A DNA stretch of 32,000 bases from Candidatus Saccharimonadota bacterium (GCA_963677765.1 OY782392.1:780001-812000), one strand, 5' to 3'; positions 1,990-25,056 are shown, numbered from the stretch's first letter. The notes: generated from the sequence alone by a model not told the origin. A program made the numbers and translations.

Positions 1990-2718
1990 ATGAGAAATAA
2001 ATTCTTATTATCATTTGTTATATTTTTTATATTAACACCATATACTTTTTCATGTAAATATGAATCTGAAATTTCTCAATGTAATTCTCAAATACAAAAA
2101 TTTGTTCCAAAAAATTGATGAAATTATATATATAATGGATCATCTATAAAAAGTTTTGAAGATTTTGTTTGTTTGCAAGCTGCTCCTGAAACAAGAGTAG
2201 CTCAAATTGCTTTGGATTTGAATTTTAAAGAAATAGATGAAGAAGTAGATACTTATATAAAAGATTTAGAATCTCAAAAAAATAGATTTTTCTGAGAAGG
2301 TTCTAGTTGAAATTATTTTGATGCTGTTAATTTTATATCTGATAAAGTTTCTGAATTCGAAGGTAAATATAGAGAGGCATGTGTAAAAAGCTTGCAAGAA
2401 ACATCAGAGTGTACTAATAATTATGCTTATGATTTAGAATGAGAACAAAAGTCTGTAGGAGTTTCTACTGCTATAGAATATTTAGCTGAATGATGAGATT
2501 GTTATGAACTAATAAATATAAAAAAGGATATAATTTCTAGTGTTTCTTATAATATATTGTTACTTAATCAAGCTCAAGTTCAAAAGGATCAGCAAACACT
2601 TTATGAACAAGATAATAGAACAAAATATAATAAATTAATTGATATTATGATGATTAATTTATGATATATTGAAAGAATTTGGCAAAAAACACCAAGTTTA
2701 ACTAAAAATCCATTATAA
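1990..2718 (+). CDS. Secreted or lipid-anchored Cys-rich hypothetical protein, 242 aa
   Basis: ATG 1990 overlaps the preceding stop (TAATATG). The N-terminal signal peptide is MRNKFLLSFVIFFILTPYTFSC. The frame runs uninterrupted under table 25 to TAA 2716-2718. I recognise no family motif. Confidence 0.6.
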
Positions 2719-2750
2719 AAAAACAAGAAGTATTACTTCTTGTTTTTTTG
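2717..2750. terminator. Bidirectional intrinsic terminator
   Basis: Stem AACAAGAAG / CTTCTTGTT with loop TATTA, flanked by an A-run and a T-run. It sits between convergent CDSs. The stop of the minus-strand gene (2733-2735) lies in the loop. Confidence 0.8.
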
Positions 2751-4271
2751 TTTTGTTCAACAATAAGGACATATTTTCATATCTTTTTTTATAGATTTTT
2801 TACATTTTTCACATTTTTTTCTTGTTGTTTTTCTGAAAAGTATAAATATAAGAATAAAAAATATTAATATTAATCATGCAAACATAAAGAAATAAGGATT
2901 TAATCATACATATTTTACTTTATAGTTTACTTGAAATTCTTCTGCAGAGTTAAATTCTATATTTTTTCATTCATAATTTTCATATCAAATCTCAATTACA
3001 GCACTTACATTTTTTTGTTCTAATTTTTCATTTACTCTTTGCCAAGGGAATATCATTCATATGTCAGCAATATTTTGATTTGTATAATACTCAGATGGAG
3101 TCCAATATTTTATTATCTTTTTACCATCTTCATCATAATCTTCATATGGAAATCATTTCCATTCACTAGTATATATTCTTTTTGTGTTTGGTAAAATATT
3201 TCATCAACCATCATTAATAGGAATATAATCAACAATTTTTTCTCATGTTATCATTCAATTTTGATCTTTTATAACTTCTTTTCAGATTCATTTTATTTGA
3301 TTACCATTCTCATCTATTAGAGTTATTTTTCATTCTGGTTTTACATGAGTATTTCAATTATTTTCAAATGGAATGCTTATTTCTATATTAAAATCTTCTT
3401 CTTTTTCTTCATTATTTGTAGCTAATTGATTATTATCTTCATTTGAGTTATTTTCTTGATTTTCATTATTATCTTCTTCTTGCTCCAAAGCTAAATTAGA
3501 GTTATTTTCTAAAGTTAACTCAGTATTTTTATTGTTATTTTCTATACTTATATTATCTCAATCTTTTTCTCATCTGTTTGAAACTATTTCAATTGCTTTT
3601 TCGAAATAAACAGTATCAAAACATTTTCAATCTGTGTCACTACTTGTAAAATCTCAGAATCTACAAACATCTTTAGAGCTAATGTTATTATCTCATCTAT
3701 CTTTTGTCCAATCATATCAACCTCATGATGAACCTGTTCATATATTTATTTCAGGCTCTCAAGGTCAAGCATTATCAATTATTTCTCAATCTACATTTAC
3801 TAATAACAATACTCAATAATCAGCATTTATTTGTACTTTTGATCAATTAATTGATCATTCATCTCATGATGTTTTAAAGAAAACAGCTCAATAATGTCAT
3901 CCTGGAACTGCATCAGTTGGTACTTCTATTTGAAATGTTATGTCATATTCTTCTAATCATCATATAACAAAACTATCAGTATCTATAGTAATCCAGCTTG
4001 CCAATTCTTGATTTGGATTTACTAATTCACTTTTTCTCACAAATGTTGGGTTTCAATATGAATCTCTAGATTCAAAATCAGATACTGAAGTTGTTATATT
4101 GTATGAACCAGTAGAGTTATTTATTAATTTTGCTGATTTTGTAACTATTTCTCATGGTTGAGCTTCTATTTCATATCTAATAGGACTAACTACAAGGTCA
4201 ATATTAGCATTTACACTAGATATATTTATACTAAAAAATAGTAAAACTAAGCTAAATAATAATTTTTTCAT
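2733..4271 (-). CDS. Cell-surface protein resembling WxL-interacting proteins (DUF916/WxLIP_PGBD-like N-domain, second beta domain, TM anchor, C-terminal zinc ribbon), 512 aa
   Basis: The ORF is 1539 nt under table 25, with signal peptide MKKLLFSLVLLFFSINISSVNA. The N-domain reads IDLVVSPIRYEIEAQPGE...SWITIDTDSFVI..EEYDITFQIEVPTDAVPGGHYGAVFF, which fits the DUF916 pattern as I recall it. An acidic Asn/Glu linker follows. The TM helix is PYFFMFAGLILIFFILIFILF, and the tail is CEKCKKSIKKDMKICPYCG. Confidence 0.7.
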
Positions 4272-4382
4272 ATATTTTTAAATTATTTAAATTATTTAAT
4301 AATCCTAATAATATTAAAAATATTTCAAAAATCAAAAAATACCTCTAATTTAGAGGTATTTTTTTAAAATTATTTTTTATAA

Positions 4383-5045
4383 TTAGAAATTACCAGTTAC
4401 AGTAAAAGTAATTTCATCAGTATAGTCACCAGCTGGAGTTTCAGCATCAACATCAACTTCAACAGTAAAAGTTACATCAGCAACAGCATTATCATCTAAT
4501 TCTGGTTTATTTGTTTCGTAAATTTTATGTTCTGTTGTATTATCAGTTACTTCAGTAGCAGTTAAATCACCAGTACTTGTAAATGTACCAATAGTTGAAT
4601 CTACTGCATTTGCAGTTGAAGCATAAGTATAATTATCACCATTAGTGTTATTTATAACAATAGAGTTATCAGAAGTATTAACTAAACCTCCATTTGCAGA
4701 TCTAGCAGTAATTGTAACACCATTTGCTGCATTTGTACCAACTTCGATATCAATACTTGCACTTTCAGCAGTACCAGGATTAATATTACCTAATGCAATA
4801 ACTGAATCAGATAATGTCATATTTAAAGTAGGTAATACAGAAGCAGTTACTTGAACACCAGAAACTGTACCAGTTGCAGTACCAGGAAAATTATCATCCC
4901 AAACTACATTTGAGTCAAAAGCAGCTTGACCTTGTACACCAGCAACACCAATATTAGTAGCTGCGAAAACATTTGCAAAATTTGTCATTGTAATAGCTGT
5001 AATTCAAGCAACAGCAAAAGCTTTTTTTATTTTTGTTTTTAACAT
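4383..5045 (-). CDS. Abundant secreted beta-rich surface protein, WxL-domain-like, 220 aa
   Basis: I extend the track ORF 4383..4988 upstream to ATG 5045, adding MLKTKIKKAFAVAGITAITM with one TGA=Gly; this gives a signal peptide ending VFA/A. The composition is Thr/Asn/Gly/Val-rich and the C-terminus is PAGDYTDEITFTVTGNF, reminiscent of WxL-domain ends. Its only TGA codon is in the signal peptide. Confidence 0.8.
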
Positions 5046-5199
5046 AGTATATGTTTAAAAATATAATATAAATAAATTTTTATTTTAATATCTCAAGAAA
5101 TTTAATTTGAATTTCTTAAGTACAAATATATTCTAGCATATTTATTTTTATAAAGTCAAAAAAAAAGCAGCTTTTTTATAAAAAACTACTTTTTAATTA

Positions 5200-8100
5200 T
5201 TAATAATCAAAAATTATATCAAAATCTATATTTCAAGAATAGCTTCATGCTGCTATATTTTCATTTATATTAGCTCAAAACCTTATACTATAAATATAAG
5301 TATTTTTTTCTCAGTTAATATTTATATTTTTTGCTTGATTTACTATTAATTGGTTTTGATTAATAGTATTTATTGTATTTGTAATAGGTTCTCAGTCATA
5401 TCAAAAACCATTAGTTCAATTCCAATCACTTATGTTTAATCAAGAATAATTTAATTCTCATGATTTATTCATTTGTATATCAAATCAAGCTCAAACAGTA
5501 TTTACTGTTAAAAATAAATCAGGGCTAAATTTATTTGTATTCAAATTATTTATATTTCATATATCAATTATAGAATCAGATATTAAAAATTCTGGTTCAT
5601 CTATATAGAATATTAAATCTTTTGTACTAGTGTTTCATCAATTGTCATCAATACTAAATCTAAATCTATATTTACCATATCATAGGGGAGATATATTATA
5701 TGTAGATTGGTTTATATTATTACTTACTGATGTCTGGTAAGTTGCTAATATATTATTTCACCAACTTGTTCAATTCCATTTACTTAGGCTTGCATTTATT
5801 GTATTCAAATCTAATCAAGACTCATCATTATAATCTATTGTTATACTTTTATTAGAATTTGGTAATAAATCATTATTACTAATATTATTATAATCTATTG
5901 TTGGTTCTGTAGTATCTAAAATAGCAGTATAATGAATTATACCATTCCATATACGAGGAGAAAATGAGTTTTGAAATTCAAATACTTTTCAAATACCTTC
6001 TCTAAATATTATAAAAGCATCTTGTGCAAATATATTTCACTCAGTAGTTCAATTTGTATAACGTATTCAAGAAGTTCATACTTCTGTAACATAAAATGAA
6101 TAAGTTGTATTTGAGTTTAAATTCAAATTATCTATTTCTATATATGTAGGATTTCATTCTCATGCTCATGTAAAAGGGTAATCTCAAACCAAAGTCCATC
6201 AGGCTGCAGCACTTTCAAATCATGCATAACTTCATTGTTTATAGTAAACACGAAGACTAGAGTTAGCAGTTCTTGTATTTATAGATAAGGCATTTACTAT
6301 TACATCGTTATTTAGTATATCTATTTCAAACATATTACCAGCTTGTCAATTTCATCATGCGAATGTAGTTTCTAATCATGATTCTACATTTCAAGTAAAA
6401 TTTACATCATAATGAATTATCCCATTCCATATACGAGGTCTCCATGTATTTGGTCAAAACTCATTACCAACTCATATTCATTCTCTAAATATTAAAAAGT
6501 TATCTTGCGAATATATAGATCATTCAGTAGATCAGTTTGTATAACTTAAATTATCTCAACTGGTATTTAGTATATAAAATGAATAATTACTATTTTCATT
6601 TAATATTAATTCATCAGTTTGAACAAATGTTTGTCATGGTCATCAATTAAAAGAATAATCTCATAACAAAGTCCATGCAGTTGAATCTGTTTCAAATCAG
6701 GCATAAGTTCATGATTTATAATATATTCTTATATCTCATGTTTGAGTTTGAGGGTTTATTGAAAATCATTTTATAGTTATTGATTGATCTAATACTTCTA
6801 TATCAAACATATTTCATCTTTGTCAGTTTCATCAAGCAAATGTAGTTTCTAGTCATGCAAATATTCATCAACTACAATCTCAGTGAAATATGTTATTTCA
6901 ATTTAAATTTACAAATCAAGAATCACTAGGTTTTTGCCAATCAAGTTCTACAACAGCTCAACCTCATCTCTCATAATATTCTAATCTTATATTATATATT
7001 TGTCATTGATTTAAATTTATATTTCATGTTACTATTGTAGGTGCCTGATCTACCCATTGATCTATTATTATATTTCAATCTATATAAAGTCTAACTCAAT
7101 CATCTGATCTTGTACGAAATGTATAATTTCATGATTCATCTGCTTGAAATTTTCATTCCCATTCTACTGTAAAATCATCATTTGGTAATTGTTCATTTGG
7201 ACTTAGATTTCACCAATCAAATCTTACTTCATAATCTGTTTGGCTATTTACGAAATTTATTAGATTGTATGGTTCAGTTGCAGTTCATGTATAGTATTTT
7301 CAGCAAAATCAAGGTGTTCATATTAGAGTATTTAAATTCCAATTTGAATCTACATTTGTTCAATTACTACAAAATCATATAGTATGAGTTTCTCAAGGGT
7401 TAATTATCTTGTTATAAGATAAAGGAGTTATTGTATGAATATTTGTATTTTGGCTATAGTTTCATCAATAACTAGATGATAAAGCTTGATCTAACTCAAA
7501 ATTTAATTGCCATCCATTTATTGTAGTATTTCAATTATTAGTTAATGTTATATCTCTACAAAATCATCAAGCCCAACTATTATTAGTTGTTATACTTACA
7601 TCTAATCAATTATCAGTTAAATTATAATCTTGTAAAACTAGTCATCATATATTTTGATAATTTTTAGTTATTAAATTTGATATATATCATATTCAACTAT
7701 CTGCACATAATCAAAAACTAAGAGTTTGTCATACTGAAAAAGTATCAGCATAAGTTCCTGGTGAAGTTATTATATATTCTCATCATCAAAGATTTGTAAA
7801 GTTTCATCACCAACTACTTGTAATATTAGCTCAGTTTAGTTTAAATCATATTTCCCAGTTTGTTATATTAAGAGTAGAATTATTTGTTGCATTAAACTCA
7901 TAACAAAATCATGTATTCCAATAATTTTCATTTGTAGTATTAAATGAAATAGGAGTTTCTTCTAGAGGAGGAGTATAATCTACTATTAGATTAGCTCTAT
8001 ATACTCTTGCATTTCTAGTTCATCAACCAGTTTTCCTATATTTTAATAGTATTCAAAAATTATTAGATTTTATTTCTGTATCACTCCATGTTGTTCACCA

Positions 8101-8544
8101 TAATTCAGTGTTTGAACCATAAATTGTTATATTTTTTGTTGTCTGACTTGCATTATTTGCCAAATTACTTGTATAAGAATCATTTCAATTTTTTGTTAAT
8201 TCAACAGCAAAATCAGTTACTCTAGTACTGCTACCTTGCCATTCTACTTCAATTTGTATTCAATTAATAGTTGATCATACAGGTATATTTTGTGATTTTA
8301 AATCAAATCATTTTAATATAAGAGTATCAGAAACACTAGGATTATTAGACATATTTACTTGTCAAAAACTAGAGGTATCATCTCAGATTATATTGTTTGC
8401 ATTAGTCCATGAAAAATCTCAGTCATTTATTACTTGTACTTCTCATACATAATTAGATACTATATCAGCATATGATATATTGTTTATACTAAAAATAATT
8501 GAAGTTATTATAAAAAAGTATATTAACTTAATAATTTTCCTCAT
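5200..8544 (-). CDS. Giant secreted adhesin-like protein, 1114 aa: signal peptide, N-terminal beta domain, 2x CBM2-like modules, PA14 domain, 2x unnamed ~160-aa repeat, C-terminal Ig-like region
   Basis: The ORF is 3345 nt, uninterrupted only with TGA=Gly and carrying dozens of TGA codons. The CBM2-like modules read YWNTGFCYEFNATNNSTLNITNWEIGFKLNGANITSSWGGNF and SWAGGFCRDITLTNNGNTTINGWQLNFELDQALSSSYGGNY. The PA14-like stretch reads DFTVEWEGKFQADESGNYTFRTRSDDGVRLYIDGNIIIDQW...IYNIRLEYYERGGGAVVELDW. Confidence 0.85.
5930..6860 (-). repeat. Intragenic tandem duplication, 2 units of ~477-480 nt (159-160 aa), diverged
   Basis: TGTAGTTTCTA(A/G)TCA occurs at 6364-6378 and 6841-6855. CCATTCCATATACGAGG occurs at 5942-5958 and 6422-6438. 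Both protein units run GLETTFAGGNGQxGNMF(D/E)I ... YYKxG(T/S)YAGFE ... YSFY ... YTNG ... PRIWNGIIHY. Confidence 0.85.
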
Positions 8545-8662
8545 TTTTTCTTATTTATTTTATATTTTAAAAATTATATATATAAACTATGTTTTTTCAA
8601 TTAAATTTAAAAATTGTAAAAAAGATTTTTTTGTTTAAAATAGGAGAAATATTTTTTAATAT

Positions 8663-9487
8663 ATGTACTTAGTGAGTTTAGATATACTAAAGAAATACAA
8701 AATAAAAGCTAAAAAATCTTTAGGTCAAAATTTTTTAGTTAATGATGAAATTGTTGAAGAAATTTCAAATATAATTGATGTAAATTGAAGAAATATTATT
8801 GAAGTTTGACCTTGATATTGAGCTTTGACAGAAAGACTAATAAATAAAAAACCAAAATCTTTAAATCTAGTAGAGCTAGATAATGATATGATAGATATAC
8901 TTAATTCAAGAATAAAAAATTGAGATTTTGATTTAGATTGAATTGATTTTAATATAAATAATATAGATGTTTTAAAATATATTCCTGAACAATCAGATTA
9001 TTGAGTTATTGCTAATATACCATATTACATTACTTCACCTATAATTAGACATTTTTTATATAATGTCGAAAATAAGGCAAAATTTATGATAATTCTTATG
9101 CAAAAAGAAGTATGAGATAAAATTTTATGAAACTGAAAGAATAAATCTTCAGTAATAAGTCTTTTTGTTGATAAAAAATGTTATGTTGAAGAAAAAATAT
9201 TTGTTTGAAAAGAAAACTTTGTTCCTGCTCCAAAAGTAGAATCAAGTGTTTTATATTTTGAGCTTCATAATAAATATGACTATATTGATGATATTTTATT
9301 CTTAGAATTTATAAAAAAATGATTTGGTGAACCAAGAAAAAAATTATTTAAAAATTTTGTTAATTCATGATTAGAAAAAAACTTAGTTTTACAATATTTT
9401 AAAGAATTATCAATAGAAGAATGAGTTAGGTGAGAAGATTTAAATATCTGAATTTGGTGCCAATTATTTGAAAAATTTAACAAATAA
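8663..9487 (+). CDS. rsmA: 16S rRNA (adenine1518/1519-N6)-dimethyltransferase RsmA/KsgA, 274 aa
   Basis: Motifs are KKSLGQNFLVN, the SAM motif IEVGPGYGALT (three of its Gly are TGA), ANIPYYITSPI and FVPAPKVESSV. By hand count there are 16 in-frame TGA against 2 GGN codons. Confidence 0.93.
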
Positions 9488-9625
9488 TTAACAACTAAAA
9501 CTTGATGAAAATAAAAATCTTTTTATAATCTGGTCTCCAATAGTGAATTGTTTAAGATATGTTTAATGTATTTTATACAAAAATACAAAATATAGTCTTA
9601 ATATTTATAATGTTAATCTAATCCC

Positions 9626-10972
9626 ATGGATAAAAAAGCTATAGTCCATATAATGACTAAGTCTAGGATGAAGAGTGATGTTTTTACCTCTGATATTGAT
9701 GCTATAGAAGAAATTTCTGAGAAATATTGAGTAAAAAATGTAATTTTTTATAAATGAGAACCTATAGAATATGCTGACTTGATAACTAAGTTAGAAAAGT
9801 TTGGTATATTTGTATATAATTATCAAAATAAAGAAGATTTAAAAGAACAAGTAATAAAATTTTCTAAAGAATATGAAGTAGTTTTTGTAACAACTGCTAT
9901 AGAATTACTTATTAATACAGTAAATGAAGTAAAAGAGTCTTTATGAAGACCTCTTTCTGAAAATCCTGATATTTTCAGAAATAAGTTTTTACAAAGAGAA
10001 TTAATACAAAATCATAATCCTGATTTGTGAATTAAGTTTATGAAATGAACTCCTGAAGATTTGAATATAGAAGAAGTTGAAAATCATGTTTGATATCCTT
10101 TTATAATAAAGCCAGTTGATTGAGTTCAAAGTTCTTGAGTAGCAAAAATCAGAAATAGATCTGATTATAATAACTATATGAAAACTTATAATGATTTTCA
10201 TGATAGATTGAAATCAAGATGAGTTGATAATAAAGATTTAATAGTTGAAGAATTTATTGATGGTACATTGTATTCTATAGATTACTATGTTAACGATAAT
10301 TGAGAAACAACTATATCAAAACCAGTTAAGGTTAGACTTTGAATAGATGTAAAAGTAAATGACTATTGTAATATAGCTAGAATATCTTCTGAAAAAACAG
10401 AATGAGAGTTTAAATGAAAAAGATTAAAAACTTTTGTTAACTCTACTATAAAAGCTACTTGAATAAGAAATACTTTTGTTCATCATGAGTTCAAAATTAA
10501 TAGTAAATGAGAATTAAAAACTATTGAGTTAAATGGTAGACTTGGTTGATGAAGATTAGAATTAATAAAAAGAGCATATGATTTCAATATGTATGAAATG
10601 GTATGTAATCCTGATATAAAAATTTGAAAATTAAAAGAAAGTAATATAGTTGTTAATATATATTCAACAAAAAGATGAATGTTGAGAGCATATAATGAAG
10701 ATTTATTATCAAAAATAGAAAAAAGAGATTCAGTTTATAAAATAGAAAAATATGACTGATTCTTATGAAAAGAAACTTGATTAACAAAAGATTGATTTAT
10801 TAAGGTTTGAGCTATTAGAATGGCTAACAAAGATTATGATGAACTAGCTAAAGATTTTAGATATATCAAAAATAAATATAAAGATTTATTAATCATTGAT
10901 GAATTTGATGAAAATCATAATATAAAACAAAAATGAATATTTTCAAAAATTAGAGAATATATTAATAGATAA
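9626..10972 (+). CDS. ATP-grasp domain ligase (carboxylate-amine/peptide ligase type), 448 aa
   Basis: Under table 25 the ORF is 1347 nt. Motifs are GYPFIIKPVDGVQSSGVAKI, LIVEEFIDGTLYSIDYYV and FVHHEFKINSKGELKTIELNGRLGGG, i.e. the typical ATP-grasp phosphate-binding, linker and Mg-binding regions. Confidence 0.85.
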
Positions 10973-11008
10973 AAAAATAGTAAGACTTATTGTCTTACTA
11001 TTTTTTTA
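10971..11008. terminator. Bidirectional intrinsic terminator
   Basis: Stem ATAGTAAGAC / GTCTTACTAT (10977-10986 / 10992-11001) between an A-run and a T-run. The TAG stop of the minus-strand gene (10998-11000) lies inside the stem. Confidence 0.8.
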
Positions 11009-12836
11009 TTAGTGCATTTTTTCTTAGTTTCTTCATAGAATTAAGAGCATCTTGAATAATGTCTTCATTGTAACTGATATTTTGTCATATAATATCCATT
11101 ACTTCTAGCTTTACTTTTTGTCTTTCTTCTTCAGTTGAGTGTGTGTATATATTTTTTAATCATATATTGATTATACCATCTATACTTATTTTTGTTTTAT
11201 TTGAAACTATATTTATTCAGTATTCATTAAAATCTAATATAGGATATTTTATTGAAATATATTTTATAAAATCCATTTCATCTAATTCTTTTCATTGCAT
11301 TCTTTGTTTTATTGCAAAAAATACTATATCAGAATAAAACATTGGCTTTAGTATTTTTTTTGAATTTATTTCATTTTTGATTTCAATTAATAATTTAATC
11401 TCATCAAATCAAACTTTTCATAAAAATAAATCTTCAAATTTTATTCATTTTTCACCATCAGATAATATATATTTATTTATTTCTTTTGCTGCCTGGAATA
11501 ATCATCTTGTATATGTTGTGTCTTTGTGTTGTACTCAGATTTTATTAGATCTTTTTAGTCTAAATAATCTATCTTTTACAGATATTATGTCTTTTTCTAA
11601 TTTGTTTGATATTATTAAAAAATCTATTAATTCTTCATTTGTTAGTATTTCAGCAAAAAGTATTTTTATAAAATTACTATTAAAATCTAATTTTTTTTCA
11701 TCAATAATATATTTTCATGTTTTTTTATCTATTTTAAAAATTTGTTCTCAATACTTCAGCATATTTTCCATCAAAATTGCTGCTCATTCATCTTTTTGAG
11801 TTGATCATTTTCATCTAATATTTCATATCAATATTTGAGAATTATGCTCTGAAATATTGTGAGTTTCATTTTCATGTGAATTTAAGGCTAGAAATCTTGG
11901 AAAATCAAAAAAAGCAAAACTTTCAGTACTTGGTATTTGAAATCAGTTTGGTCAGTCAGATATACTTTTAGCATAATTATTAACCTCTACATTAAAGTTC
12001 ATTTTTTTGAATGCTTCTATAAAAAGATTGAATCATAAAATATAATCTTTTTGACTTAGCTTATATTTAGATAATTCATTTAATTTATTTTGATTGCTAT
12101 TTGATTCTTTGTATTGGAATCATATTTCTAAAAATGACTCTAATTTTTTTATATATCATAAAAATCTTTCTTTTTCTTCTTGGTTTATTTTATGTTTATT
12201 TTTTTCAAATATAGTTTTGACTTTTGTATAACATAATCAAACTTCTTCAGGGTTTTCTTTTATTAATCATCAAAATAATTTTTTATCTATATCTCTTTGT
12301 TTTTTATTTATTTTTGATTCTTCTTCATTTTTTAATTCAATATCTAATCATGCCTTTTCTTCTTCAAATACTAATCAATTTAAACAATATTTTAGTAAAA
12401 GAATTTTTTCATCTAGTGAATTCTTAAGTATTAGTATTTTATTTTTATTTTTTGTTTTTAGTTTATCTATATTTATTTTTTCTATAAGATCTTTTGAAAT
12501 TTTTATTTCTTTTATTTTGCTTTTTATTTTCTTTCTTAATTTTTTAGATGCTTTTTTAACCTGTTTTATTTTTTCACTATCGTCTGATTCTAAAAATAAA
12601 TTTATATCTAACTCTCATAAACTTATGAATAGGGTAGTATTTATATTTACTTCTCTTCAGTTTAATATTAACTTTTCTCATGTTTTTTCATTTGTATTTA
12701 AATATGAGTAAGTTACTTCAGCTATTTTCCACATTTCTTGTTTTATCCATATTTCATCATCATAAACTAGAGAAGTTATATCATTTATAAACTCCTCTAG
12801 TTTTTCTATTCAAAAATTTTCTAGATTTTTTTTCAT
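10998..12836 (-). CDS. DUF1704/MATCAP-like (QEGLA-motif family) putative Zn-metallopeptidase with a long Lys/Glu-rich N-terminal region, 612 aa
   Basis: The ORF is 1839 nt under table 25. The core reads FQIPSTESFAFFDFPRFLALNSHENETHNISEHNSQILIGNIRGKGSTQKDEGAAILMENMLKYG, followed by HKDTTYTRG. Its layout parallels the CDS at 14926-16062. The family call is from memory of the HE..H ... (Q)EG(L)A signature. Confidence 0.6.
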
Positions 12837-17676: not shown

Positions 17677-18822
17677 ATGGCAAAAAATGATTTAACTCTG
17701 TTTGAAGAGTTGTTTGCAGCATCTCCTGAAATTAAATACCCAAAACAAGGAGAAGTTATTTCTGGTACTATTGTTAAAATAGAAAAGAAAAATATTTTAG
17801 TAAATGTTAACAATCAATTTACTGGTTTAGTTGTTTCTAAAGAAGTAGGTAATACTATTGATTTAAATGAATTACAAGCTGGTCAATCTATTGATGTTAT
17901 GGTTTTAGGTGACTCTGTTGAAAGAGGTTTATTAATCCTTTCTCTTAAAAGAGCTAACCAAATCAAAAACTTATCAAATCTTACTAAATATAACGAAACT
18001 AGTGAAATTATTACAGTTAGACCAACTGAAGCTAATAAATGAGGTTTATTAGTTGATATTGATGGTTTAAAAGGGTTTATACCTGTTTCTCAATTAACTC
18101 CAATTCACTACCCAAGAGTTGAAGGAGCTGATCCTGAAAAAATTCTTGCTCACTTAGACGGTTTAGTTGGTGAACCATTCAAAGTTAGAGTTATAAATGT
18201 AGATGAAGCTGGTAAAAAAATCATTTTCTCTGAAAAAGCTGCTATAGAAGAAAACAGAGAAAAAGCATTAACTAACTTAAAAGAAGGTGATGTTGTTGAA
18301 GGTACTGTTTCTGGTATCTTATCATATGGTTTATTCGTTACTTTTGATTGATTAGAAGGTTTAGTTCACGTTTCTGAAATTGATTGGGGACATGTTACAG
18401 ATCCTTCAAAATTTGCTAAAGTTTGAATGAAAGTAAAAGTAAAAGTTATAGGACTTGATAGTGAAAAAATTTCATTATCTATAAAAAGATTAAAAGAAAA
18501 TCCTTGGGATGTTCTTGCTAAAAAATACAAATTAAACGATTCAATAACTGCTCCTATTTCTAGAATTTCTAAATTTGGTGCATTTATGGACTTAGAAGGT
18601 GGAATACAAGGTCTTATCCATTTATCTGAAATTTCTCACGGAGTTGTTAAAGATATTAGAGATCATGTTAAAGTTGGTGAAGAAGTTACTGCTAAAATCA
18701 TCAATTTTGAACCAGAAAAGAAAAGAATTGGTTTATCTTTAAAAGCTTTACAAGAAGCTCCTAAAGAAACTGAAGTAAAAGAAGAAACTAAAGAAGATTC
18801 AAAAGAAGAAGCTTCAAAATAA
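17677..18822 (+). CDS. rpsA: 30S ribosomal protein S1 (four S1 domains), 381 aa
   Basis: Track fragments 17677..18042 and 18427..18822 are in one frame (1146 nt), joined through 3 TGA=Gly. The contexts are ANKGGLLVDI, FDGLEGLVHVSE and AKVGMKVKV. S1-domain motifs repeat. Confidence 0.93.
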
Positions 18823-18949: not shown

Positions 18950-19744
18950 ATGAGTAAAACTGTATTAAATTCAATGTTTGAAAATTTATTACATATTGGT
19001 AATAAATCAAATTACTGGAATCCAAAAATGAAATCTTATATCTATGGATCAGTAAATGGTATCCATGTTATAGATTTAACTAAAACTGCTGAAAAATTAG
19101 AAGAAGTTAAAGCTGAATTAAAAGAAATTCACGAATCAGGTAAAAAAATCTTATTTGTTGCTACTAAATTACAAGCTAGAGATGCTGTTTCAAAAATGGC
19201 TACTGAATCTGGTCACTACTATGTAGCTGAAAAATGGGTTCCTGGTTTATTAACAAACTTTAAAACAATCAAAAAAAGAATTGCTACTTATGTTAAATTA
19301 TCAAATGATTTAGAAAATGGAGCTTTTGATATGTTAACAAAAAAAGAAAAAGCTGCTAAATTATTAGAACACGAAAAATTAGATAAAGCATATGCATGAG
19401 TAAAAGATATGAAAAAAATGCCAGATGTTATATTTGTAGTTGACGGTATTTATGAAGATCAAGCTATCAAAGAAGCTAATTCATTAAAAATCAAATCATT
19501 TGCTATATTAAATACAAATGGTGATGATACTTTAGTTGATAATTGTATACCAGCTAACACTAATGCTGTTAAATCAATTGAATTCTTAGTAAATGAATTA
19601 TCTACTTCTTTATCTGGTACTGCTAAAAAACCAGCTGCTGCTAGAGTAAGAAAAGTTGATGATAAAAAAGTTAGTGGAGAAAAAAAAGCAACTAGAAAAC
19701 CAGCTGCAAAAAAAGCTCCAGCTAAAAAAACTGAAGAAAAATAA
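18950..19744 (+). CDS. rpsB: 30S ribosomal protein S2 with Lys/Ala-rich C-terminal tail, 264 aa
   Basis: Track fragments 18950..19399 and 19409..19744 are in one frame, joined by a single TGA=Gly (AYAGVKDM). The S2 motifs are HIGNKSNYWNPKM and ILFVATK. Confidence 0.95.
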
Positions 19745-20150: not shown

Positions 20151-20936
20151 ATGGCAATTACAGCTGCTCAAATAAAAGAATTAAGAGAACTTACAGGTAT
20201 CGGTATGATGGAATGTAAAAAAGCTCTTAGCGAAACTGATGGTGATATGGAAAAAGCTATTGAAGAATTAAGAAAAAAAGGTTTAGCAAAAGCTGCTAAA
20301 AAAGCTGATAGAGATACTTTTGAAGGTGGTATTAAAATTATTACTGAAGCTGGTAAAGCTTATATCGTATCTGTTTCATGTGAAACTGATTTCTTAGCTA
20401 ATTCTGATAAGTTTAAAGCTATGTTAGAAAAAGTTGCTGAATTCTTAAAAGAAAACGGTGCTGATTCTAAAGAAGCTGCTCAAGAATTCATCAACTCTAA
20501 CTATTCTTTAGAAATGGGTGAAAACTTACAAGTTTCTAACTATAAAATAGTTGAAGGTGATGTTGTAGCTGACTATGTTCACTCTAACGGTAAATTAGCT
20601 GCTTTAATAGTTGCTAAAGCTGGTACTGATGAAGAAAAAGCTAGGCAAGTTGCTATGCACGTAACTGCAAGTAATCCTGAATTCTTATCTCCAGAAGAAA
20701 TTTCTGATGAAGTATTAGAAAAAGAAAAATCAATTCAATTAGAAATGATGAAAAATGACCCAAAAATGGAAGGTAAACCAGATGATGTTTTATTAAAAAT
20801 TATCGAAGGTAAAATGGGGAAATTCAAATCAGATATTTCTTTAACTGAACAAGCATTTGTTATGGATCCAAATATGAAAGTTAAAACTTTCATCGGTGAA
20901 GGTAACTTACAAGCTTTTTACAGATTTTCTATATAA
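20151..20936 (+). CDS. tsf: Translation elongation factor Ts, 261 aa
   Basis: This is an intact standard-code ORF. The UBA-like N-terminus is ITAAQIKELRELTGIGMMECKKAL, with CETDFLANSDKF further in. It has no TGA codon; all 17 Gly are GGN by hand count. Confidence 0.97.
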   Translation: MAITAAQIKELRELTGIGMMECKKALSETDGDMEKAIEELRKKGLAKAAKKADRDTFEGGIKIITEAGKAYIVSVSCETDFLANSDKFKAMLEKVAEFLKENGADSKEAAQEFINSNYSLEMGENLQVSNYKIVEGDVVADYVHSNGKLAALIVAKAGTDEEKARQVAMHVTASNPEFLSPEEISDEVLEKEKSIQLEMMKNDPKMEGKPDDVLLKIIEGKMGKFKSDISLTEQAFVMDPNMKVKTFIGEGNLQAFYRFSI

Positions 20937-24656: not shown

Positions 24657-24692
24657 AAACCCCTTATCAAGTTATGATAGGGGGGGTTTTTT
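24657..24692. terminator. Bidirectional intrinsic terminator (10-bp stem CCCCTTATCA / TGATAGGGGG)
   Basis: An A-run, stem at 24660-24669 / 24675-24684, then a T-run. It is shared by convergent CDSs. Confidence 0.85.
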
Positions 24693-25056
24693 ACTCAATG
24701 AGTTCGAGATAAGCTTTGAACTGCTTTCTCAAAACAGTGAGTTTAAAGGGTCTATCAACTACAATAGTTCTTACTTTTGCAGTAAAGCCAATTTCTTCAT
24801 CTTCGGTTCCAGGAGTTTTTCCTTTCATAACCTCAAATGATTTAAAACTTACCAGAAATTCTGTAATTGAGTCAAATAGGCTACCACTGAAATACAGACG
24901 AAGGAGAATAGGTTTTTCTCCCAGGTCTATATAGTTGTGATTGCTCTTTTTTTCTACTCTTTTTTTGAAGTTTTGGTAGATTTTTTCTTTTTGCTCATTG
25001 CTCAAATCACCTTTTTGTATTGATTGAGGAAGAGCCATATGAAGATGTTTTTTCAT
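24691..25056 (-). CDS. Hypothetical protein, 121 aa, compositionally atypical (possible horizontal acquisition)
   Basis: This is an intact standard-code ORF with no TGA; all 6 Gly are GGN. A strong SD (AGGAG) lies 6 nt upstream of the ATG. It uses CTG/CTC/CCC/GGC/CGT codons that are rare in neighbouring genes. I recognise no family motif. Confidence 0.7.
   Translation of the reverse strand: MKKHLHMALPQSIQKGDLSNEQKEKIYQNFKKRVEKKSNHNYIDLGEKPILLRLYFSGSLFDSITEFLVSFKSFEVMKGKTPGTEDEEIGFTAKVRTIVVDRPFKLTVLRKQFKAYLELIE

Follow-up and report, generated by a model that had tools for sequence, protein, structure and literature searches.

A three-gene cell-surface cluster in a UGA-recoded bacterium of the Candidate Phyla Radiation as a candidate usher-less, chaperone-assisted fibre system

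We analysed a 32,000-nucleotide stretch of a genome deposited as Candidatus Saccharimonadota bacterium (GCA_963677765.1 OY782392.1:780001-812000), hereafter called the window, and focused on a candidate cell-surface cluster of three consecutive minus-strand genes. The genes are designated A, B and C and encode proteins of 1114, 220 and 512 residues. A previous inspection of the bare DNA (the sequence-only reading) had proposed that they encode a large lectin-type adhesin, a WxL-like protein and a membrane anchor of the WxL-interacting protein (WxLIP) type. All three open reading frames (ORFs) are present as proposed under genetic code 25, and each product begins with a typical Sec signal peptide, as judged by eye. 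The features of the cluster are collected in Table 1.

The G+C content of the window is about 23%, and almost no ORFs are found with the standard code. Reading TGA as a sense codon gives long ORFs that cover the whole window; readthrough of TAG or TAA was also considered and was discarded in favour of this reading. In the DEAD-box motifs TPGR and HRIGRT, glycine is encoded by TGA in one paralogue and by GGT in the other, and a conserved glycine of LepA (LYGGD) is likewise encoded by TGA. Because these universally conserved glycines carry TGA, the codon was assigned to glycine. Homologues of the cluster proteins are labelled Candidatus Gracilibacteria, and code 25 was therefore applied.

Table 1. 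Genes, protein parts and terminator-like sites of the cluster (positions counted from the first letter of the window)
Feature	Position	Strand	Residues	Description	Basis
Gene A	5200..8544	-	1114 in all	Secreted multi-lectin protein, candidate tip adhesin	ORF and translation, code 25
A, two CBM2 modules	7318..7947	-	~200-409	Best stretch residues 316-409; N-terminal limit approximate	Pfam PF00553
A, PA14 domain	6922..7314	-	411-541	PA14	Pfam PF07691, 103.8 bits, E 9e-30
A, tandem duplication	5770..6867	-	~560-925	Beta domain of ~185 residues, GLETTFAGGNGQxGNMF...RIWNGIIHY	Seen in sequence
A, C-terminal module	5203..5628	-	973-1114 (~140)	Conserved, possible pilin-like acceptor domain	
Gene B	4383..5045	-	220 in all	Secreted beta-sandwich, candidate major fibre subunit; ends ...GDYTDEITFTVTGNF	
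B, candidate donor/linker strand	4830..4874	-	58-72	TVSGVQVTASVLPTL; directly before the Ig-like domain	
Terminator-like hairpin between B and C	4334..4364	-		14-pair stem, then T run	Consensus scan
Gene C	2733..4271	-	512 in all	WxLIP/DUF916-type membrane-anchored protein, candidate assembly chaperone or base	
C, DUF916-like Ig domain	3762..4202	-	24-170	Invariant ATPGGHYG motif	Alignments
C, second beta domain	2916..3395	-	293-452	Ends in a long beta-hairpin	AF2 model
C, transmembrane helix and basic cytoplasmic zinc ribbon	2751..2903	-	457-507	CxxC-x10-CxxC	Hydropathy; Pfam Zn_ribbon_3, E 1e-5
Terminator-like hairpin, convergent end of C and plus-strand gene 1990-2718	2715..2751	+		17-pair stem	Consensus scan

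Gene C encodes a WxLIP/DUF916-type protein with two beta domains and a transmembrane (TM) anchor. The relationship is seen in both directions of comparison with profile hidden Markov models (HMMs): 35 of 56 members of the C family match PF06030 (WxLIP_PGBD/DUF916; best E 8e-9), and the C-family HMMs in turn give 33-46 bits with annotated DUF916 proteins of Arthrobacter and of a WxL cluster in Paenibacillus. C-like proteins from lineages of the Candidate Phyla Radiation (CPR) other than Gracilibacteria match PF06030 in 5 of 10 cases, once above the gathering score. The proposal that the N-terminal domain of C belongs to DUF916 thus holds at the level of the family but not for the window's own protein, which has no PF06030 match at E <= 1; its Pfam matches are to zinc-ribbon models only, and an NCBIfam scan was also without DUF916. 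PF11797 (DUF3324), another of the models suggested for checking, was matched by none of the 56 C-family and 10 C-like proteins.

The structure of C was assessed on an AlphaFold2 (AF2) model of its orthologue P0123, which is 56% identical and correctly translated (predicted local distance difference test, pLDDT, 76). Besides its two beta domains and a long hairpin, the model contains a TM helix and the zinc ribbon. Together with the hydropathy of C, which places the hydrophobic helix at about residues 457-479 (peak at residues 455-483), it bears out the second beta domain and the membrane anchor that had been predicted. The best Foldseek match was 9i25_C, the WxLIP from E. faecium locus A bound to a long WxL protein (E 2e-9), with 9i1y close behind, and next came the pilus chaperones CfaA, YadV, CsuC and Caf1M (E 6e-8 to 1e-5) and then RbmA. 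The alignment with WxLIP runs over about 395 columns and both domains, with a TM-score of 0.47 normalised to the target. In the first domain of C, a loop that is disordered in the model is followed by the last strand, INADYGVLLLVNV; residues 140-153 of P0123, between the last two strands of this domain, have pLDDT below 50. The disordered loop corresponds to the hairpin of the WxLIP DUF916 domain, which AF2 predicts to insert into WxL and to complete the WxL sandwich (PMC10599100). C is more likely to be an assembly chaperone or base than the simple anchor first suggested.

The HMM of the second domain of C also matches the protein of locus L006, a 373-residue standard-code relative, with E 2e-27. 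This relative has neither the conserved Cys-Cys loop nor the low-complexity linker nor the zinc-ribbon tail by which the Gracilibacteria proteins are extended. The loop lies within residues ~200-292 (about 3395-3670, minus strand), has the conserved pattern D-x-C...D-G-K-C and probably forms a disulfide; the linker after it is rich in Asn and Glu and very variable in length between species. The four Cys of the tail (residues 485-507; 2751-2819) are nearly invariant across the Gracilibacteria family, and the tail is lacking in the standard-code CPR relatives examined (L006) and in the Paenibacillus DUF916 protein. Through this tail, the protein may be linked to a partner in the cytoplasm. On a plasmid of Deinococcus sp. 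AB2017081 (NZ_CP140100.1, 3848-9533), a 272-residue C-like/DUF916-like protein without a TM helix scores 54 bits against the C5 HMM. Its neighbours are secreted proteins ending ...AVNFKLTGTF and ...AVLSWSVEAR and a 1090-residue CarboxypepD_reg protein, and the locus may represent a related chaperone-type system in a diderm.

Gene B leads to a different family from the one first proposed. The Pam pili of Ca. Mycosynbacter amalyticus, which have been resolved by electron cryo-microscopy, are filaments built by donor-strand exchange (Troman et al., 2026, bioRxiv 10.64898/2026.03.03.709456). Their system consists of the pilins PamA, PamB, PamE and PamT, the PapD-like chaperones PamC and PamD, which have a C-terminal TM helix, and the RbmA-like anchor PamR (NCBIfam NF058581, NF058579). 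B has 412 homologues, which are conserved and unannotated. NF058581 (CPR_Pam_pilin_C) is matched by 38 of 41 members of the B family, with a best E of 4.5e-7 and all scores under the curated cut-off, and 9 of 41 match the PamT model, again below its cut-off. An exhaustive profile search with B gave 200 relatives; many of them have 270-390 residues with the B-like domain at the C-terminus, a two-domain arrangement like that of PamB, and such two-domain relatives are present in other CPR bacteria. In this wider superfamily, 29 of 60 sampled proteins match NF058581 (best E 5.5e-13). The AF2 monomer model of B has a mean pLDDT of 86.9, and its top Foldseek matches are CfaB, the TasA fibre (8aur, second), CsuA/B, CupE and FimA. 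Pfam gives a weak 'Enas' match.

The identification of B as a WxL-like protein was not upheld. PF13731 (WxL) was matched by 0 of 41 proteins of the B family and 0 of 60 of the wider superfamily, and it gave no match to A, B or C at E <= 1. Neither W-x-L nor W-x-[LIVM] occurs in B or in residues 975-1114 of A, each of which has a single Trp. Real WxL domains of Paenibacillus align with B across the last strand only (16 columns), where both have the terminal-strand motif AG-x-Y-x-x-x-x-T-F/Y-T-x-T-x-G. A side observation concerns a plasmid of Paenibacillus urinalis (NZ_CP118105.1), on which an annotated WxL protein (7869-8438) and the C-terminus of its large partner (8454-11600) themselves lack a literal W-x-L and have GW[AQ]Y and FT[YF]T instead. 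Both proteins end in AGTY[KR]SVFT[YF]T.TSGI, which is near the PAGDYTDEITFTVTGNF of B.

Before its Ig-like domain, B has a stretch that could serve in strand exchange. The mature protein is about 190 residues long, and in the AF2 model the part N-terminal to the linker contains only a beta-hairpin (residues 30-50). The stretch best conserved between B and its two-domain Pam-like relatives is V-x-V-T-A-S-V-L-P-T-L in B; the motif they share reads V-x-V-T-A-T-V-x-P-T-L, in which A, V and P are nearly invariant. In Pam pilins, the donated linker is the most conserved part (Troman et al., 2026). It is plausible that residues 58-72 of B are a donor strand, and these residues do not form a strand in the monomer model.

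Codon use sets B apart from its neighbours. Outside the genes that avoid it, TGA makes up about 80% of glycine codons. The fraction is 107/120 in A and 36/43 in C, neither of which shows avoidance, and 1/18 in B, as against 452/566 in other genes (Fisher p = 6e-11). B thereby equals the level of rpsA, rpsB and tsf together (4/60), and TGA avoidance may be usable as a proxy of expression in this genome. The individual values are 3/31 for rpsA (17677-18822), 1/12 for rpsB (18950-19744) and 0/17 for tsf (20151-20936); a 121-residue gene of no assigned function at 24691-25056 also has TGA in 0 of 6 glycine codons and a GC fraction of 0.33. From its codons B looks like a major, highly expressed component, in agreement with what had been argued from its scarcity of TGA, and the abundance of TGA in A reads as the signature of a low-expression gene. 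Since B avoids TGA and a terminator-like hairpin stands between B and C, the output of B would be far above that of C and of A. The region contains two terminator-like sites, where shuffled sequences gave 0.6 +/- 0.8. Promoter-like sites (70 against 63 +/- 7 expected) were at chance level in this AT-rich DNA and were not used. PamA and PamB belong to the most abundant proteins of M. amalyticus (Troman et al., 2026). An excess of B is easier to reconcile with a polymer that has a catalytic helper and a minor tip than with a 1:1:1 complex.

Gene A is the large lectin-type adhesin that had been predicted, with a PA14 domain and two CBM2 domains in Pfam. The CBM_2 match has E 3e-22, NCBIfam recognizes the CbhB C-terminal region, and PDB sequence matches include the PA14 domain of RsgI3 (6qe7/6qdi, E 1e-33 to 1e-35) as well as CBM2. 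For the duplicated domain that follows, neither Pfam nor NCBIfam nor the PDB sequences gave a match. A-like proteins of different species have unrelated N-terminal parts, and only the last ~240 residues of A are common to the large proteins of the related loci L002 and L003 (35% identity). The C-terminal module is conserved, and it forms the extreme C-terminus of proteins of 291-1632 residues whose genes lie immediately upstream of B at no fewer than nine further Gracilibacteria loci. B is the only other ORF in the window that its HMM matches. It is likely but unproven that this module is a pilin-like acceptor domain that joins A to a fibre of B. In A a variable N-terminal lectin part is combined with a conserved C-terminal module, and tip adhesins of the FimH and PapG type have this layout. 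At the loci L029 (2-646, 789-5063) and L032 (2-406, 1775-5047), two large-adhesin genes in tandem, both with this C-terminal module, lie upstream of B, and such tandem genes in some Gracilibacteria suggest interchangeable tips.

A homologue search with the C-terminus of A returned only two proteins, and the probable cause is that the database translates TGA as Trp. This large protein database does so in many recoded contigs (P0001, P0121 and others). The result is dozens of false Trp per protein, by which word-indexed searches are broken and HMM scores are probably depressed.

The domains of A also bear on function. The cluster might capture glycans or scavenge nutrients, as the idea of a 'cell-surface complex for carbohydrate utilisation' (csc) has it for Lactobacillus, rather than attach the cell to a host. 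This alternative was already named by the sequence-only reading, CBM2 modules typically belong to polysaccharide-degrading enzymes, and PA14 is found in glycosidases. However, A contains no catalytic glycoside-hydrolase domain, no sugar transporter or glycosidase genes lie beside the cluster, and the unrelated N-terminal parts of A-like proteins fit host-specific adhesion better than a conserved substrate. We regard glycan capture as very unlikely.

The arrangement of the genes is conserved in related genomes. The order A-B-C was found again in at least nine other Gracilibacteria. A larger order of ksgA, (A) B C, and then genes for 240-residue and 75-residue proteins, HSP20 and T2SSF is also conserved; the large gene is absent or moved in some genomes, and L001 has B and C without it. 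Since the three-gene order is conserved, we did not find the joint lack of family similarity and of conserved arrangement that the sequence-only reading had named as speaking against itself. In the window, the T2SSF gene (PilC/GspF-type, type IV pilus platform) lies at 104-1225 on the minus strand, about 1.5 kb from the cluster, and T2SSF, HSP20 and the two small genes are syntenic with B-C in the Gracilibacteria loci L001-L003.

Scanning GTDB representative genomes with a C-like profile gave 42 loci, in Gracilibacteria, Peribacteria, Saccharibacteria, Parcubacteria/Paceibacterota, Kerfeldbacteria, Lloydbacteria and Minisyncoccia. A pilin-like gene lies within a few kb of the C-like gene at 33 of the 42 CPR loci, usually directly upstream and on the same strand. 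In Saccharibacteria and Parcubacteria, two or three C-like genes alternate with genes for pilins of 360-460 residues, as in the pam operon. C-like loci also occur in metagenome-assembled genomes labelled Gammaproteobacteria (L013), Chloroflexi (L040) and Cyanobacteriota (L048); L013 reads best with code 25, so that at least this one looks like a mis-binned CPR contig.

This pairing of genes bears on the possibility that B forms a matrix or envelope layer by itself, either a TasA/camelysin-like fibre or an S-layer-like coat, and that A and C are functionally separate neighbours. The TasA fibre is the second-best structural match of B, the weak 'Enas' match points the same way, the high-expression signature would suit a coat protein, and L001 shows that the large adhesin gene can be missing. 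On the other hand, at 33 of 42 loci in very distant CPR lineages a pilin-like gene and a C-like gene stand side by side on one strand, which argues for a functional pair. B has no TasA or camelysin match in Pfam, the window contains no SipW-type peptidase or TapA-like gene, and mature B (about 19 kDa) is small for an S-layer protein. It is very unlikely, in our view, that B is such a layer.

We consider it moderately probable that the cluster encodes a minimal Pam-like surface fibre, assembled with a chaperone and without an usher, in which A is the lectin tip, B the major subunit and C the WxLIP-type membrane chaperone. The analysis shows the gene structure, domains, remote homologies, fold similarities, expression signature and conserved synteny. 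For the assembly mechanism we infer strand donation, polymerisation, the position of the tip and its ligand as follows. All three proteins would be exported via Sec, and C would be held in the membrane by its C-terminal helix. The first, DUF916-type Ig domain of C would cap subunits after their export by temporarily adding one of its strands to the incomplete beta-sandwich. B, present in large excess, would polymerise head to tail by donor-strand exchange through the conserved strand before its Ig-like domain. A would be incorporated in small amounts through its conserved C-terminal module, and its CBM2 and PA14 lectin domains would be displayed at the distal end, where they may bind glycans on the surface of host cells.

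Several points weigh against a Pam-like fibre. B itself scores 17 bits (E 0.003) against NF058581, for which the cut-off is 55 bits, and this denotes remote homology and not curated membership. Its Foldseek scores are modest (E ~2e-3, TM-scores 0.35-0.55), and it lacks the nine-strand N-terminal domain of PamA and PamB. The C family has no match to the NCBIfam Pam models. C does have two Ig domains, a fold like that of chaperone-usher chaperones and a C-terminal TM helix, and in these respects it was compared with PamC and PamD by their description only. Unrelated Ig-rich proteins score alike with the multi-Ig C in Foldseek, and the evidence from its fold therefore counts only together with the HMM evidence. 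The C-terminal module of A is co-linear with the B domain over 125 columns but the match is weak (hhalign E 0.002, probability 13%; reversed control E 0.18); B-family HMMs did not match A even with filters off, and the A domain as a single sequence gave nothing significant against profiles. The other ORFs of the window did not match the pilin, C-like or A C-terminal HMMs, and no PamR-like anchor or second pilin was found among them. The proposed A-B-C fibre is deduced from genes and monomer models, and no filament has been seen. In addition, WxLIP-WxL assemblies are currently described as static complexes and not as fibres.

This last point introduces the main alternative, a static surface complex of the WxL type, in which C binds one B and one A C-terminal domain and the platform displays the lectins of A with no polymerisation. 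C is WxLIP-like in sequence and fold, a small protein, a large protein and a DUF916 protein make up the most common WxL cluster, PDB 9i25 is itself a complex of a WxLIP with a long WxL protein, and the terminal-strand motif is common to B and real WxL proteins. However, B and the C-terminal domain of A fail both PF13731 and the dual W-x-L test, and the relatives of B that can be detected are Pam pilins, which are proven filament formers. The WxL chain of 9i25 is outside the top 50 structural matches of B. A 1:1:1 complex is also a poor fit with the ribosomal-protein-like signature of B and its own terminator, when C and A are seemingly weakly expressed. A static complex is thus unlikely, and we retain the fibre as the preferred reading.

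The resemblance to csc/WxL operons that had been proposed is nevertheless real in part. By definition, a WxL cluster has one or more WxLIP and two or more WxL proteins encoded within four genes (Hassan & Williamson), and those of Lactobacillales and Bacillales encode both a small and a large WxL protein, along with a WxLIP composed of DUF916, DUF3324 and a TM segment (PMC10599100, PMC9772566; PDB 9i25, 9i1y). The cluster in the window likewise pairs a small secreted beta protein with a large protein that has N-terminal binding domains and a conserved C-terminal module, and adds a DUF916-type TM protein. The architecture and the identity of C therefore stand, but that of B does not. Besides the missing PF13731, W-x-L and PF11797 matches, the cluster has no LPXTG protein, C is 150-170 residues longer and ends in a zinc-ribbon tail, the organism is a CPR bacterium and not a Firmicute, and B groups with filament-forming pilins.

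Chaperone-usher pili provide a second comparison. The fold of B resembles CfaB, CsuA/B and FimA, and that of C resembles CfaA, CsuC, Caf1M and YadV; the N-terminal lectin and the candidate pilin-like C-terminal domain of A follow the layout of a tip adhesin, and a terminator-like hairpin follows the major-subunit gene. The cluster differs in having neither an usher nor an outer membrane, its helper is membrane-anchored and not soluble, and no sequence similarity is detectable. No usher-like protein was found among the window genes or is listed in the related loci. When the PDB sequences were searched with the profiles of B, of C and of the wider pilin group, InlJ, zinc fingers and a Big_2 domain were the only matches, and no WxLIP, WxL or Pam chain was among them.

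Pam pili have several features in common with the cluster. Both occur in CPR bacteria and have Sec-exported subunits, a highly expressed major subunit, adjoining pilin and helper genes and no usher, and the C-terminal truncated-Ig domain of Pam pilins is remotely homologous to B. However, B is a single-domain protein of 220 residues, whereas Pam pilins consist of a nine-strand N-terminal sandwich, then a linker strand, and finally a C-terminal domain. The cluster has one helper gene, whose product adds the Cys loop, the low-complexity linker and the cytoplasmic zinc ribbon. The window contains no PamR-like or PamT-like gene, and the 1114-residue PA14/CBM2 protein is found instead; RbmA appears solely as a fold neighbour of C. 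The lineage is that of recoded Gracilibacteria, and all NCBIfam scores are under the cut-offs.

The principle of chaperone-assisted strand-exchange fibres is already known, and so is a CPR pilus of this kind. The remark that no such cluster was known from recoded Patescibacteria has to be adjusted: the 2026 description of a CPR pilus (bioRxiv 10.64898/2026.03.03.709456) already includes PapD-like chaperones anchored in the membrane. That paper is silent on WxL/DUF916 and on Gracilibacteria. What appears to be new is the Gracilibacteria variant, together with the homology that links WxLIP to the helpers in Pam-like operons.

The DUF916/WxLIP protein of gut Firmicutes is homologous to the membrane-anchored helper encoded beside Pam-like pilins across the CPR, and two literatures are joined by this. 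The homology points to a mechanism of strand complementation common to both, and by way of it hundreds of 'hypothetical' CPR surface genes could be annotated. More tentatively, and with more doubt than confidence, WxL/WxLIP clusters of Firmicutes and Pam pili of the CPR could be branches of one ancient fibre system of monoderm-type bacteria, which works by donor-strand exchange with a membrane chaperone and no usher. DUF916-type relatives in Actinomycetota and Deinococcus may belong to it, and the A-B-C cluster of Gracilibacteria would be its minimal form, with a single pilin, a single chaperone and a tip adhesin. If this is true, the WxL 'complexes' would also be assembled by strand exchange, and the host range of recoded CPR epibionts would be determined by the variable lectin tips. 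Gracilibacteria are uncultured, UGA-recoded and presumably host-dependent. For their attachment to other cells, this operon is a concrete and widely conserved candidate, a device composed of an abundant subunit, a membrane helper and a lectin tip that varies between species.

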